DNA of 64,000 nucleotides from a virus. The position numbers were made by a program, and so were the translations under genes. Below, in pieces: positions 19,067 through 64,000 of the stretch (positions are counted from its first letter, which is position 1; the number at the start of each line of letters is the position of its first letter). Under the pieces are notes generated by a model that was given only the letters and a program-made list of their open reading frames with translations, did no database searches and was not told where the DNA came from. The stretch is from positions 16,578 through 80,577 of IMG/VR virus record IMGVR_UViG_3300021476_000002; one strand, written 5' to 3'.

Positions 19067-19453
19067 GTGACACAGTGTATGTGGCCAATGGGTGCTAAGC
19101 CGGAAGACGAAAACCGGTGTAAGAACAAAGCCACAAACGATCTTCAGGCTACCGCGAGGGGCAAGGCTCTTAGTACAGACCCGAAAGGGAATCCCGTCAA
19201 GATTCCCATAATGGGTAAGGTCCGCATGTTTGTGTGCGACGAACACCTTGAAGGCTCTAAGGCTCAGTACGGCGTAACGCCGTTCGGTCCAAACGTGGAA
19301 GACGTAATCATTGATGTTATTGTGGGGCCGTGGCCCCCGCGTCAGTATCGGGAAGACCAGCGAGTCGTGATTGGAAACCCGGCGGACGAGTACAGCGAAA
19401 AGTATGAAAACCCGGATGAGCCTTTCATACGTGGTGGGAAGGGTTGGAGATAA
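19067..19453 (+). CDS. Hypothetical protein (Cys/His)
   Basis: C...C...CDEH motif. Confidence 0.55.
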   Translation: MTQCMWPMGAKPEDENRCKNKATNDLQATARGKALSTDPKGNPVKIPIMGKVRMFVCDEHLEGSKAQYGVTPFGPNVEDVIIDVIVGPWPPRQYREDQRVVIGNPADEYSEKYENPDEPFIRGGKGWR

Positions 19454-19457
19454 GTCG

Positions 19458-20585
19458 GTGACAATCGAAACCCTGCGGTCTTATTTTCCTCGCATTGGTC
19501 GAATTGGTATGGGGTTCATGACCGACACGAAAGCAGATGGTACGAAGGCTAAGCGTCCGTTTCCTGCCCGTACAGAGACGTTTGTATTCCATGCTGACGA
19601 CGAAGACCGTGCCAAAGAGGTTGCGCGTGTTTTTGGTGGCGATGTAGCCGAGGCTATCAGCCGAGACGAAGAGGGCGGGCGCTGGCGAGTTATCACGAAG
19701 GCCAAGGAAATCGAATTCTTTCTTCCAACAGACGATGAGCGGTCGGTGGACTTTTGGATGGAGAAGTGGAACAACCTAGGGGTCGTGCGCCGATGCACCG
19801 GCAATGTGTGCGTCATGGCCGTCGTGGATAGCAAGCCTGACCCACAGACAGGAGAAGTGGTTAAGCAGACGATTCGCAACGTGCCATGTCTGTGCGAACA
19901 GGAGAACGCGCACGGTGAAGACGCCTGCGATACCACTACCAGGATGAACGTTGTGATTCCTGTCCTTAAGGATGCGCCGGGGCTAGGGGTCTGGCAGGTG
20001 CAATCCCGTGGGCGTGGCACGTGTCAAGCCATTAAGGGGTCTATCGAACTGCTTCAGGCGCTTCGGGGGAGTATTGCTCTGACTCCCCTTATTCTCGTGG
20101 CGGGCATGAAGCGCGTGCAGTACGAGGAAGACGGGCAAACCAAGAGCATGAGCGTGCCGCAGATGAGCATTGACACAACACGCTCTATGGGGCAGTACGT
20201 GGAAGAGAAGCGGTCGGCCAGGGCGTTGATTGATGTTCCCGACGTAGACCGAAATCAGCCTGTGATTGGGGCATTACCAGCACCAAAGGCTAAAGAATCT
20301 ACGGAGGTCCCGACCGGAGCGGTGAATGGAGACGCTGACGGTTCGCAGCCTAGGCCAACCGCGCTGGCTCCGGCGGACCCTATTCCCAACGATCAAACCG
20401 CTACTACGGAGCAGCGGTCAAGGTTGTGGGAATACGCTAAGGGACTTGGGATTACAAAGGATGAAGCGCGTTATATTGTAAAAACTCATTTCAACAAACC
20501 AAGCACAGAGGGCATGACTGTCGCGCAACTGGCGCAGGTCAAGGATATCATCACGAAGTTTGCGAGTGGGAGGGAAAAGAAATGA
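19458..20585 (+). CDS. Gp3-like / recombination directionality factor-like protein (phiC31 gp3 family)
   Basis: FPRIGRIGMG...RRCTG...CLCEQ...C...MNVVIP...GLGVWQVQSRG pattern; ERF-like C-terminal tail. Confidence 0.7.
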   Translation: MTIETLRSYFPRIGRIGMGFMTDTKADGTKAKRPFPARTETFVFHADDEDRAKEVARVFGGDVAEAISRDEEGGRWRVITKAKEIEFFLPTDDERSVDFWMEKWNNLGVVRRCTGNVCVMAVVDSKPDPQTGEVVKQTIRNVPCLCEQENAHGEDACDTTTRMNVVIPVLKDAPGLGVWQVQSRGRGTCQAIKGSIELLQALRGSIALTPLILVAGMKRVQYEEDGQTKSMSVPQMSIDTTRSMGQYVEEKRSARALIDVPDVDRNQPVIGALPAPKAKESTEVPTGAVNGDADGSQPRPTALAPADPIPNDQTATTEQRSRLWEYAKGLGITKDEARYIVKTHFNKPSTEGMTVAQLAQVKDIITKFASGREKK

Positions 20586-20689
20586 CAGGAAAGGCTAAAA
20601 AATGCACAACAGGAAAGGCTAAAACTTTCACGCGGGTGATGGGTGGCAGATGGGTGACGGTCAGCGGTCGGCGGGTGTACCTGTCGTGA
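20582..20689 (+). CDS. 35-aa mini-protein carrying the WVTVxGxxVY tag
   Basis: MTGKAKKCTTGKAKTFTRVMGGRWVTVSGRRVYLS; GGGAGG RBS; ATGA overlap upstream and GTGA overlap downstream. Confidence 0.65.
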   Translation: MTGKAKKCTTGKAKTFTRVMGGRWVTVSGRRVYLS

Positions 20690-20946
20690 AGGTGCCTGTT
20701 TTCGTGACGCAAAAGGATATTGACACCGGCGTGAGATTTGAACCGGCTAGGTGTCCAATTGCTCTGGCGGTGCGGCGTGCGGTGGACCCGAAGGCAAAGG
20801 TATACGCCCGCAGGATTGAATGGCGTGGTGTTGGTCTCGGTCTTTGTGGTGCGATAATGCGCGACGAGTTGGAGGAATGGCGGCGTGCGTTCGATCACGG
20901 CGACAAGGTGAAGCCAATTAAGTTCTACCTGGAGGTGCCGGAGTGA
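20686..20946 (+). CDS. Conserved phage hypothetical protein
   Basis: VTQKDID.G....CPIALAVRR...FDHG..VKP..F motif. Confidence 0.6.
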   Translation: MKVPVFVTQKDIDTGVRFEPARCPIALAVRRAVDPKAKVYARRIEWRGVGLGLCGAIMRDELEEWRRAFDHGDKVKPIKFYLEVPE

Positions 20947-21308
20947 ATAAGTCCTTGGAACAGGAACGTGAACGCCTCACAAACCACATGGCGTATATCA
21001 TGGACCGATTTGATTTCAACAGGGTGGCCATGGTTATGTCTATGTTGGGTTGGAAGTGGGTTCAGGAAGGAAAGCCAGACGCCGATGTTCCCAATCTCGG
21101 GCAAATCAAAGCCTCAGCGGCAGACTTGATGAATTATATCATTAAGGATTACGAAGGTGTGGCAATCGGAGTAGGCTCCGGTGGTTTTTATGCAAGCATT
21201 TGGATTGACCTAGAGAGCCGAAGACCGGTTCTAGATTTGAAGTTTGAATTGGAACAGTTAGACTCGTTGATGGCGGATTATTGGGATTCCCAAAAGAAAA
21301 AGTTCTGA
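20943..21308 (+). CDS. Conserved phage hypothetical protein
   Basis: IMDRFDFNRVAMVM..LGWKW...GSGGF motif; GGAGGT RBS. Confidence 0.65.
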   Translation: MNKSLEQERERLTNHMAYIMDRFDFNRVAMVMSMLGWKWVQEGKPDADVPNLGQIKASAADLMNYIIKDYEGVAIGVGSGGFYASIWIDLESRRPVLDLKFELEQLDSLMADYWDSQKKKF

Positions 21309-60247: not shown

Positions 60248-60568
60248 GTGGGTGGTTTCTGGGCTTACGACGATACAGTTGTAGAAGGCCCGTCTGGCGG
60301 GCGGTGTTATACCTGCGGCGTTGGGGCGGGGGTGAGTAAGATTCATGTGGATGTGTTCTGGCGGCCAGACCCTCACGAGGGACCACGGAAACTGATGCGA
60401 TCTTACGATGAAGACTTTAAGCACCAGAGCGAACGCCTGTTTGGCAATCCTCAGTTGTGCGAGGATTGTCTTGCATGGTCGCAGAGACACGGCGGGCTTG
60501 TCCTAAGCCTGAAGCGTGGCCAGCGTGGTAAGAGTAATGGGGATGGGCGACTTGAGGATTCCGACTAA
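60248..60568 (+). CDS. Zinc-finger hypothetical protein
   Basis: CYTC...CEDC. Confidence 0.5.
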   Translation: MGGFWAYDDTVVEGPSGGRCYTCGVGAGVSKIHVDVFWRPDPHEGPRKLMRSYDEDFKHQSERLFGNPQLCEDCLAWSQRHGGLVLSLKRGQRGKSNGDGRLEDSD

Positions 60569-61901
60569 GGTTCAAGAGGCCGCACGCGAGACGCGGGAGG
60601 GAGCCGATAGTGATGGCTACCATTGGGTGACTATTGCTGGAAATCCTGTAAAGATCAAAGATACTGGTCGGAAGTCTCAGATCGTAGCCCACAAAGATGA
60701 AGGTAAGATTGAATTTTTTGGTGGTCGTGGGTGGGCACAGTCACCTTCTGTTGTTGAGAAATTGGGCTTTGGACGAAGGGCATTTCGATTCTTGTATGAA
60801 CCGAAGTCTGGTACATTGGTTACCAATGCGCCTGCCGGTTATGATGTTTTGCATTCGTCAATGGTAAAGAACATGGGGTGGGGTTCAAAGTCTGAGGATG
60901 GATTGCTTCATGGAATGAGTTTTAGTTCTGGTGGAATTGGATTGTATGGATTTGAAGACGATAAAGAATTTGAGACAGCATCAGCGCGGTTTGCGCGTGA
61001 TGTTCTTGGGGCGATTCCAGGTTACAAGGGTATGCCGGTTGAGATGATTGGAAGGGGAAGTAAGTATGACTATTTAACTAAGGTTACGGTTCCCTCTACG
61101 GCATGGCAGCCGGTGCCACGTCGCGGGGTTTCATTGGGTAGTGTTGCTGGTTTGTCTCGTGAGTCAGCGCGTGAGGCTGAGTGGGACTCTGAGAAGCATC
61201 CGAGGGGTGAGCACGGCAAGTTTGCCTCCAAGGATGAACCGGCGCACAGCGCGGTAATACACGCAGTTATTGAGCCAGAGAATCGGCAGGCGTATGTACA
61301 GCACGTGGCTGAGGAGTTGGGTTGGCATGGGCCAGTAAGGTATGTGCATGGAGATGGGCCTAAGTTTACTCCTGGTCAAACTGCCACGGGTCCGCAAGAT
61401 GAAAACACTGAAGCGGCGCATTTCGATCCCCAGAAGAATGAATTGGTTTTCTATCAGGGCACATTTGAGGTCGGTGGTAAACCAGAGAGTATGCTTGCAA
61501 TTGAGGGAATCGTAGCGCATGAGGTTGAGCACGCAAAATTCCACCAATGGTTTAAGGATTCTCTTGCTGATGAAATGATGGCAAGTGCCGTAGCGTCCGA
61601 TAAGAATGTGCCGATGCGGGATGTCTTGACTAAAGAGGACCACCCGATTGCTTACGATAGACTTAATTCTTACGATAGAGCATATGGTGATTTGGAAAAA
61701 GAAGATGGGGTTACAGCGTATGATGGACAGTACTGGAAAATTGGCATAACCCAACGTGCGATTGATGAGGGGTTGGCAGAAATTAGTCGCACGCTTCACA
61801 AGGGCGATACGGTTGGATTTCGTATGTTAGGGGATAGCCACCCACAAATGATGAAATTGTGGAACATCGTAAAAGAATATACCAAGCAGCACCCGCTATG
61901 A
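60516..61901 (+). CDS. Polyvalent/internal-head-type multidomain protein with gluzincin-like peptidase
   Basis: HWVTIAGNPVKI tag; WDSEKHPRGEHGKF motif; AHEVEH...EGLAE. Confidence 0.75.
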   Translation: MASVVRVMGMGDLRIPTKVQEAARETREGADSDGYHWVTIAGNPVKIKDTGRKSQIVAHKDEGKIEFFGGRGWAQSPSVVEKLGFGRRAFRFLYEPKSGTLVTNAPAGYDVLHSSMVKNMGWGSKSEDGLLHGMSFSSGGIGLYGFEDDKEFETASARFARDVLGAIPGYKGMPVEMIGRGSKYDYLTKVTVPSTAWQPVPRRGVSLGSVAGLSRESAREAEWDSEKHPRGEHGKFASKDEPAHSAVIHAVIEPENRQAYVQHVAEELGWHGPVRYVHGDGPKFTPGQTATGPQDENTEAAHFDPQKNELVFYQGTFEVGGKPESMLAIEGIVAHEVEHAKFHQWFKDSLADEMMASAVASDKNVPMRDVLTKEDHPIAYDRLNSYDRAYGDLEKEDGVTAYDGQYWKIGITQRAIDEGLAEISRTLHKGDTVGFRMLGDSHPQMMKLWNIVKEYTKQHPL

Positions 61902-64000
61902 TTCGTAGATTGCCAGACAGGACAATAATCGCCTACCTGGACAGCGAGTGGAAGCCGGTAGAGCCGAATCAGGCTACGATCATTAAGGTGATCTATCCTG
62001 ACGGGCGTACTGTGTTTGCGCGGCCATCCGCACAGATGGTTGAGGTTGATAGTGATATTGATATGAAACGTTCTGTCACGCTTCTCACCAGGGACGATAA
62101 AAAAGATGATATGCGTTGGGTGACAATAAACGGAAGACATTTCAAATTGTGGGACGATCAAGGAAACCCACAGGCAATAGATAAGGCAAAAGAGCGCGGG
62201 GATAAACCGGATTACCAAGGTAACGAACCATTAGTTCAGGCTAAGTGGTTGTTGGACCCGAAGGGTATGGTATTCTTCCATACACGTATGCACCACACGA
62301 TTGTTGCGAGGGCGCTTGGGAATGACGACCCACTTCAGGATTCTGGAGGGACTATAGCAAACAATCACGTGTATCAAGATATGGGAGAAAGAAGCGATGA
62401 GACTAAGCGGCGAGTAGCATCTGAATGGACAAAGTTTCGTTCCATGGAATCTCGTGAGGCTGAAGTAGAAGATCAGCCTGTTCATTTTGTGACATGGATG
62501 GGGCATGTGATTCCCATTAAGGGAGCGAAGCCTCAGCCGGGTAGACCAATTCCGGGAGCCGAAGAGAAGGAATTACCAGAGGCGTTCGGTCCCCACAGGA
62601 CAAAAGAGGGTGTTGTAAAACTTCCAACCGGCGACACGTGGCGGTATTCGTATCGGAGGGAGTTTTCTGATGCTCCTCCAAGCGCAACCGTGACACCAGA
62701 TCAGGTAGATGGTGTTCATGAGGCGGCGGCTGTGCAGGCGGCGTTTGAGGCCGCTAGGATGTTTTGGACATCGGACGACCCTGATGCCAGGGCGTTGCGT
62801 GCGGCTGACAATGAACCACGGGAAGCGGCTGATTTGAGTAAAATGAAGGCGGACATGCACGTTATTTTTACGATGAATATGAAAGACTATGGCATGGGTT
62901 CCGCAGGGTATGGCGGTGGCAAGGTGTTCTGGGGGCCGTATTCCGTTCCAGATCGAGAAGCACGGTTGACTGCCCCTAATGGATATCATGCAGGGCAGTC
63001 TATCGGTGTAGACCCTATGTATGTAATGGGGCATGAATTGCATCATGCTTTTGGATATGGAAGCGAGTTTGATAAAAGCAGCGATGTGGTTGGAGTTGCA
63101 GCGCATATCATTTCAGGGCTTCAGCACAATCCTGCGGCGGCAACCGAACAGGTTCATATGTGGCTTGCGAATTACAGTTACGGCAGCAAGCCGCAATGGA
63201 GGAATAATTCTGGTAGATCGTTGCGATGGTTGAATAACCGTTGGCCTGACGCTATGGAGCATTTGGCTGTAATGTCGGGATACACACAGCAGCAATGGCA
63301 TGAAACTGTTGATAAGTTTAATCGGATTGGTAGGCATAAGGCCAAGGAATCTATGCGGTTGAAAGCCGACCAAATTGACTTAGATGGACATAAGCCCGAA
63401 GAGGTCTTGATGGTGTCGGTTGATAGGTTGCATCCTCGAATGGGTGGGACGGGGCATGGCCCTGAGCGCCCAGAAGAGGTGGCTCAAGCCATGAAGTCAG
63501 GCAAGATGAAGATGAAACCGTTGACTGCGATTAAGCGTGAGGATGGTGAATGGTGGATTGGAGACGGGCATCGTAGGTTTGGCGCGGCTGAGATTCTTGG
63601 TATTCCTAGATTGCCTGTTGTGGAAATCAGAGAGGTTGCTACTAAGGAGGCTTCGAGTACAATACAGGCAGTCCTGAGCCTACCGTCTCGTTATGACGAC
63701 CCCGGCCATTGGCGGATGGTTATGGGGCATCCAGTGTACATCAAGGATAAGGTTCCTGGGGCGGTGACGAAGTTTGACACACCGGAGGTTGTGGCGGCGC
63801 GTAAGGGTCAGTCTGAGATTCAACACACAAGCGATATCAAGACTCCAGAGCGTGCCCGTATGCGGGCGACGTGGGTTTCGGCAGAGACCGCAAGGTTGGT
63901 GGCTGATAACCCCGAAAAGGGCAGGCAGTTTTGGCTTGTACTAGGATTACCGGCCAGCGGCAAATCCGGTCAGGTGGCTGAACCATTAGCGCAGCGCGTG
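61898..64000 (+). CDS. Large polyvalent protein (3'-truncated, missing from the ORF track): zincin, ParB/Srx-like and Zeta-toxin-like P-loop kinase domains
   Basis: Hand-translated: 701 codons with no stop; ATGA overlap with the previous gene; GHELHH, IGDGHRR..AA..LG, VLGLPASGKS. Confidence 0.85.
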   Translation, partial: MIRRLPDRTIIAYLDSEWKPVEPNQATIIKVIYPDGRTVFARPSAQMVEVDSDIDMKRSVTLLTRDDKKDDMRWVTINGRHFKLWDDQGNPQAIDKAKERGDKPDYQGNEPLVQAKWLLDPKGMVFFHTRMHHTIVARALGNDDPLQDSGGTIANNHVYQDMGERSDETKRRVASEWTKFRSMESREAEVEDQPVHFVTWMGHVIPIKGAKPQPGRPIPGAEEKELPEAFGPHRTKEGVVKLPTGDTWRYSYRREFSDAPPSATVTPDQVDGVHEAAAVQAAFEAARMFWTSDDPDARALRAADNEPREAADLSKMKADMHVIFTMNMKDYGMGSAGYGGGKVFWGPYSVPDREARLTAPNGYHAGQSIGVDPMYVMGHELHHAFGYGSEFDKSSDVVGVAAHIISGLQHNPAAATEQVHMWLANYSYGSKPQWRNNSGRSLRWLNNRWPDAMEHLAVMSGYTQQQWHETVDKFNRIGRHKAKESMRLKADQIDLDGHKPEEVLMVSVDRLHPRMGGTGHGPERPEEVAQAMKSGKMKMKPLTAIKREDGEWWIGDGHRRFGAAEILGIPRLPVVEIREVATKEASSTIQAVLSLPSRYDDPGHWRMVMGHPVYIKDKVPGAVTKFDTPEVVAARKGQSEIQHTSDIKTPERARMRATWVSAETARLVADNPEKGRQFWLVLGLPASGKSGQVAEPLAQRV

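Follow-up and report, generated by a model that had tools for sequence, protein, structure and literature searches.

Location and gene signals of a 35-codon reading frame

The window, that is, the whole stretch of 64,000 nucleotides analysed here, corresponds to C1:16578-80577 of a 113,878-bp linear virus record that is estimated to be 87% complete and was assembled from a cave metagenome run. A reading frame of 35 codons on the plus strand (20582-20689), hereafter the mini-gene, sits in a replication/recombination operon alongside genes for Ku, a protein with a LexA-type DNA-binding domain, a Gp3-like protein, an initiator, and DnaB. The gene directly upstream (19371-20585, plus strand) belongs to the Gp3-like recombination directionality factor family (PF18897, E 3e-28), and its true start may lie further downstream than 19371. 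The gene directly downstream (20686-20946, plus strand) encodes an 86-aa protein of phrog_19191, a family of unknown function. Searches of IMG/VR and GTDB with the portal, the Gp3-like gene, and the downstream gene returned no relatives of this phage.

The mini-gene is preceded by a Shine-Dalgarno sequence, GGAGG, at 20569-20573 (plus strand), 8 nt 5' of the ATG and within the final codons of the upstream gene. Its duplex with the anti-Shine-Dalgarno sequence has a predicted energy of -10.9 kcal/mol, which falls in the top quartile of the 123 large genes of the genome and is matched by 2.7% of random ATGs. These values bear out the initial annotation, which had described a 35-codon frame with a strong ribosome-binding site that is coupled to its neighbours at both ends: the start overlaps the stop of the Gp3-like gene in an ATGA (20582-20585), and the stop overlaps the start of the downstream gene in a GTGA (20686-20689). 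Such 4-nt overlaps are a habit of this genome, given that NTGA endings occur in 51 of 122 large ORFs. Gene callers passed over the mini-gene and placed the start of the next gene at an overlapping ATG at 20650, which accounts for the absence of the peptide from protein collections; the exact 35-aa sequence was not found in the collection searched. The ATG at 20650 was judged an unlikely start, given that alignments with distant homologues of the downstream gene already begin at residues 1-7 of its GTG form. A start at Met20 of the mini-gene, which would give a 16-aa product, was rejected as it has no Shine-Dalgarno sequence. A single Logan contig from the source run, and hence from the same sample, covers the locus without a difference, and the locus is thus no artefact of assembly. 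Scans for promoters and terminators did not exceed chance. Taken from these sequence signals, translation of the mini-gene is highly probable.

The encoded peptide contains nine Lys/Arg residues and no Asp or Glu, with a pI of 11.6. The first half of the gene holds a 16-bp exact repeat on the plus strand, with copies at 20585-20600 and 20609-20624, that forms part of a 24-nt in-frame tandem duplication of codons 2-9 and 10-17; the repeat had been noted in the initial annotation and is confirmed here with a period of 24 nt. It is the longest exact direct repeat of the genome at a spacing of 16-30 nt, the 24-nt in-frame duplication is unique, and the genome has no third close copy of the 16-bp unit. 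A role as an operator or iteron was rejected on the absence of any further close copy. No homologues of the basic N-terminal half were found anywhere, and the peptide matches no Pfam or PHROG family and so carries no enzymatic or effector domain.

The peptide ends in the hairpin tag of head-region proteins

The last 15 residues of the peptide (G21-S35; 20642-20686, plus strand) correspond to a tag with the family pattern G-G-[HR]-W-[VI]-T-[IV]-x-G-x-[HPRK]-[VI]-[FLY]-[IL], of which the genome holds 14 native copies over seven head-region proteins, where the tag stands at the start or the end of modules. Within the window, one copy lies at 60621-60656 in a 461-aa polyvalent protein (60516-61901), and the first three of four copies in a 1285-aa polyvalent protein lie at 62114-62149, 62483-62518, and 63707-63742 (all plus strand). 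The larger protein runs from 61859 to beyond the window and includes ParB-like and zeta-like kinase modules. The C-terminus of the peptide had been proposed to match the tag found four times in these 60.5-64 kb proteins, where the tag Trp codons lie at 60624, 62117, 62486, and 63710, and this holds on closer comparison.

The peptide has the W-x-T-x-x-G-x-x-hydrophobic-x-hydrophobic motif above background, and an HMM built from the 14 native tags scores it at 15.4 bits (E=0.0024 against the six-frame genome), and the best background sequence reaches 7.4. By position matrix, the peptide has 21.9 bits where background peaks at 12.3, and this value falls inside the span of 8.6-35.7 that true tags show in leave-one-out scoring. 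When 1.84 billion representatives were searched, 96 tagged proteins were recovered, and 196 tags were drawn from the foreign ones. An HMM of these foreign tags scores the peptide at 19.5 bits (E=1e-4, rank 5 in the genome, best background 7.0), which is above 10 of the 14 native tags; the search program's own E value is 1.2e-5, and scores under the foreign profile span 19.5-22.7 bits. Against a score of 21.5 bits for the peptide itself, 5,000 shuffles of it reach at most 9.0 bits. The profile comparison that the initial annotation had called for thus places the peptide well above a background of at most 7.4 bits with native and foreign tags alike. AlphaFold2 predicts residues 1-22 to be disordered and residues 23-34 to form a beta-hairpin, with strands at 23-27 and 30-34 and a pLDDT of 87-89. 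A fold search with the predicted hairpin returned nothing below E 2, and a predicted co-fold of the peptide with two copies of the portal core scored 0.00, a value that speaks neither for nor against binding. The mini-gene is very likely to be a real gene, and it carries a complete tag.

The peptide has no cargo domain and is not encoded near terminase, portal, or head genes: the closest tagged gene is 40 kb away from the mini-gene, and the portal gene (C1:87395-89569) is 50 kb away. The probable head protease-scaffold and major capsid genes, identified by their position and by likeness to a gene of contig L119, run off the contig ends. In this genome and in contigs L119 and L155, the tag is often preceded by hydrophobic-x-Glu motifs, which are read as probable head-protease sites. 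Many hydrophobic-R-E and hydrophobic-x-E motifs lie between the modules of the head region (G000:C1:77093-113878, window 60516 onward), often just before the hairpin tag or before a second recurring motif, W-D-x-x-K-H-P-R.

Two further accounts of the frame can be weighed at this point. It could be a chance ORF, or a lone cell-wall-binding repeat of the TcdA CROP or choline-binding type that happens to resemble the tag. The clostridial repeats of TcdA (PF01473 type) do contain a superficially similar W-x-T-I-x-G hairpin, which the tag profile matches weakly (PDB matches at E 0.4 or worse), and the preference of gene callers for the ATG at 20650 is in keeping with a chance frame. However, CROP repeats work in tandem with paired aromatic residues, whereas the peptide has a single copy without such residues and no Pfam cell-wall-binding match at E up to 1. 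Two independent profiles place it far above background, a syntenic orthologue exists in contig L004 (below), and the downstream gene is better read from its GTG, as its distant homologues indicate. This account is already largely refuted and is very improbable.

The second account has ribosomes slip by -1 late in the Gp3-like gene, so that this recombination protein gains a basic linker and tag and becomes a head-loaded isoform with the shape of the C-terminally tagged enzymes. The mini-gene frame is indeed the -1 frame, has no stop for approximately 39 codons upstream of the ATG, and is approached by an A-AAG tetramer at 20576-20579. There is, however, no slippery heptamer, the Shine-Dalgarno sequence is too close to stimulate a -1 shift, and the nearest stem further along lies at a distance of 45 nt. 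Neither the approximately 90 tagged proteins nor 117 loci include a tagged Gp3-like homologue, and the strong Shine-Dalgarno sequence and ATGA overlap account for the layout without a shift; frameshifting is thus highly unlikely.

A cargo-bearing orthologue in the same slot

The only close homologue of the downstream gene (70% identity) is present on L004, an ENA contig of 1,184 bp. Directly upstream of it, and coupled by the same GTGA, is an acidic ORF of 96 aa whose first 16 codons are orthologous to codons M20-S35 of the mini-gene. The two tags share 10 of 16 residues, five of them with identical and five with synonymous codons, and their BLOSUM score of 57 exceeds those of the native tags, which are all below 40. 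The slot therefore holds a tag and 80 residues of cargo in L004 versus a tail and tag here, and the ATG of the mini-gene lies 19 codons upstream of the Met that is orthologous to the L004 start. The 96-aa protein has no homologue but itself, and no other phage turned up with this slot in cargo-less form. On the DNA level, a post hoc comparison matches the last codons of the L004 ORF to the 3' half of the mini-gene at 21 of 32 nt (p=0.0025 by shuffling). This likeness fits either a deletion in the present lineage or a duplication and insertion in L004, one homologue giving no direction.

The Gp3-like frame has a further 17 open codons past its stop (window 20586-20639), up to a TGA overlapping Met20. 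The resulting TGATG is the same junction that starts the L004 orthologue and is possibly a trace of an older gene boundary. Two low-depth contigs of the source run share the end of the downstream gene (window 20878-20951) and continue with a junction of the L004 type; these contigs come from related phages, and relatives of the mini-gene slot thus coexist in the source sample.

The mRNA of the mini-gene is predicted to form a hairpin at 20624-20693 (plus strand), with arms at 20624-20638 and 20678-20693, a stem of 15 pairs, and a z of -1.8, that buries the GTG of the downstream gene. The computed opening energy over this GTG is 16.6 kcal/mol, a value reached by two of 43 other coupled starts, against 9.0 in L004. 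It is suggestive only, on the basis of these folding predictions, that translation of the mini-gene opens the start of the next gene. Since ribosomes on the mini-gene would open the hairpin, the frame has a reason to persist whatever its peptide does.

The orthologue and the hairpin bear on the possibility that the mini-gene is a neutral remnant, in which a tag-headed gene like that of L004 lost its cargo by deletion and the ORF was kept for coupling while its peptide is idle. The alignment of the 3' half with the end of the L004 ORF is what a deletion between imperfect repeats would leave, the downstream start is buried unless the mini-gene is read, and only a single genome shows the cargo-less form. 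On the other hand, a deletion that joined within the tag would be expected to have damaged it, yet the tag-family profile gives the peptide 21.5 bits compared with 8.8 bits for the L004 copy, and this better match argues against a decaying relic. The same DNA pattern also fits the duplication and insertion in L004 set out above, the mini-gene has its own strong start upstream of an orthologous Met that lacks a Shine-Dalgarno sequence, and tag-only genes have arisen separately in at least five other phages. An idle remnant is thus held to be unlikely, though it is the strongest of the alternatives.

Tag-only genes in other phages

Scans of IMG/VR with DNA patterns identified 138 tag loci; patterns for the tag start gave chance matches only, and the first stop-anchored pattern gave zero matches. 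Five unrelated closed tag-only ORFs of 39-61 aa are present in other phages, all in terminase, portal, or cargo regions. One (L075) lies between the small and large terminase genes, one (L206) between terminase and portal, and two (L111 and L061/L129) downstream of terminase, and the fifth (L174) heads a gene run with two ADP-ribosyltransferase-like members upstream of a probable portal gene. Four of the five are basic (pI 10.1-10.9) and most have a strong Shine-Dalgarno sequence, although several of the contigs come from similar gut samples and are not fully independent. Basicity is not universal among them, given that the ORF of L206 is near neutral. The genome that contains the fifth ORF (G057, complete, 105 kb) has this mini-ORF as the sole tag found. 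The run in question (L174:171-4233; G057, about 41.5-46.3 kb) begins with the tag-only ORF of 49 aa and continues with approximately five genes of 240-250 aa that share a short Gly/Ser N-terminal leader and alternate with small basic ORFs, and two of its genes give ADP-ribosyltransferase matches.

In three phages, the tagged gene in the slot between terminase and portal is 193, 101, or 39 aa long, which, as read from sequence, is the same cargo-length series as that of the mini-gene slot here and in L004. Near-identical tag-ending ORFs of 44-52 aa in L070 (90-248 and 7934-8068) were not counted, as they lack a Shine-Dalgarno sequence. One of them lies in frame behind a lipase-like gene, and both are probably broken ends of C-terminally tagged enzymes.

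Nearly all of the 139 tag matches in 61 whole records cluster with head genes. An exception is genome G008 (L176:6941-7378; C1 about 11.3 kb), where a 145-aa tag-headed ORF directly follows the primase and DnaB genes, 62 kb from the other seven tags of that genome. These positions bear on the proposal in the initial annotation that the peptide could be a decoy or timer. On this reading, a free, monovalent tag made early would occupy the tag receptor and limit or delay cargo loading, or would titrate a host sensor or the receptor of a rival phage. If so, a phage-encoded competitor would set the effector cargo load, or would jam the receptor of a co-infecting phage or a tag-reading host sensor. 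The position in the replication/recombination operon was the sole basis of that proposal, and the complete tag, the absence of folded cargo, and the absence of Glu are compatible with it. Early position does not imply a decoy, however, because L004 has a cargo-bearing tagged gene in the same slot and G008 has one after the primase. The other tag-only genes are found in late regions, no receptor is known, and the internal-protein genes of phage T4 also lie outside the head cluster. A decoy or timing role is accordingly considered improbable.

Tagged C-termini and the link to the head interior

A free C-terminal tag is not confined to the mini-gene. A low-complexity linker, basic on average, and then the tag form the C-terminus of 76 distinct proteins longer than 150 aa, which include a GH108 muramidase, an M15 peptidase, and a lipase; most of their genomes are assigned to Gastranaerophilales. 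The Trp lies 12-13 residues from the end of these proteins, as it does in the mini-gene, a distance that was selected by the nearby stop required in the search pattern, and the set comes mostly from this one bacterial order. In this set from Melainabacteria, 48 of the 76 have in addition a helix resembling a copy of the tail of probable scaffold proteins, and the hairpin tag is absent from those scaffold proteins. The hairpin is therefore not simply a scaffold mimic, as the scaffold-tail helix is a separate element and the scaffolds lack the hairpin. It may serve retention or ejection rather than loading, and the scaffold-tail motif is the better candidate for loading in Melainabacteria. On GTDB contigs, mostly of Gastranaerophilales (L212-L330), the tag closes the members of a large family made up of GH108, M15 peptidase, lipase, and DUF6973 proteins, and approximately two thirds of these also bear the scaffold-tail helix, a two-part address.

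The tag is tied to the head interior by two further arrangements: it follows the portal domain in fusion proteins, and it starts a DUF2213 head protein of the cultured Acinetobacter phage phiAC-1. A published description of the tag was not found in the literature searched, which took in few subscription papers, and the tag, though recurrent in unrelated phages, seems not to have been described in print.

Proposed role and comparison with known systems

The mini-gene is probably an emptied tag-plus-cargo gene. The preferred reading, which is held tentatively, is that it is a translated, cargo-less member of a tag-plus-swappable-cargo family, that its tag takes the peptide into the head as a basic passenger, and that coupling is a side role. 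The tag would bind a component of the prohead interior, and the peptide would enter heads as other tagged proteins would. Since its disordered tail of charge +9 offers no Glu after which the probable head protease could cut, the peptide would stay whole. Inside the head, this small basic passenger would bind DNA or occupy vacant tag sites, and it might be ejected. As a second job, ribosomes on the mini-gene may unwind the mRNA hairpin and so relay translation through the replication operon. The gene signals, profile scores, predicted hairpin, L004 orthologue, sister mini-genes, C-terminal tags, and buried start are consistent with this reading. The comparative data agree best with a basic passenger, an option also raised in the initial annotation, since four of the five foreign tag-only ORFs are very basic and lie near terminase, portal, or cargo genes. 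Against it, this tag-only ORF is far from head genes, unlike all other tag-only ORFs.

The proteins from which the tag comes, with ParB-like, zeta-like kinase, and ADP-ribosyltransferase-like modules and genes located before the portal gene, resemble the polyvalent and MuF/portal-fused effectors (PMC5512222). Those proteins have two or more enzymatic or effector domains, whereas the mini-gene encodes no enzyme domain and sits in a replication operon, and the passages considered from Iyer et al. 2017 (PMC5512222) describe no such tag. The closest working parallel to the mini-gene is provided by the internal proteins IPI-III of phage T4 and their capsid-targeting signal, the CTS (PMC9026906, PMC9391042), although loading in the present phage is a proposal. 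T4 packs approximately 300-360 copies each of these small basic proteins via a 10-residue signal (PMC9026906). The likeness lies in small basic proteins and in a short (10-19 aa), portable peptide common to unrelated head-internal proteins. The T4 signal, however, is N-terminal, carries folded cargo, and is removed by the gp21 protease after a Glu, whereas the mini-gene has a C-terminal tag, a peptide without Glu, and no cargo. More broadly, the hairpin tag differs from the T4 signal in being a predicted beta-hairpin that occurs at N-termini, internally, and at C-termini across unrelated phages, and that stays on its module after the probable cut site. In size and charge (35 aa, pI 11.6), the peptide does share the feature of the T4 internal proteins. 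Adenovirus mu is likewise a short, very basic core peptide; such peptides are cut from precursors and have no shared address tag. The mini-peptide is similar in being short, very basic, and probably disordered, and could neutralise packaged DNA, with no sequence relation claimed.

Only for a few model phages, T4 and P1 among them, is it known how head proteins are chosen, retained, and ejected. The tag-only form, its cargo-bearing orthologue, and a small class of sister mini-genes are the new findings. A natural tag-only gene narrows the unit to approximately 15 residues and suggests that it works at a free C-terminus. The peptide offers a ready probe and competitor for finding the tag receptor, even if its own role may be modest. 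The tag is also testable in culture, because phiAC-1 is a cultured phage that bears it. The annotated start of gene 0041 in phiAC-1 (L331:5986-7641) seems to be too late, as the frame is open 95 codons earlier and there begins with the tag.
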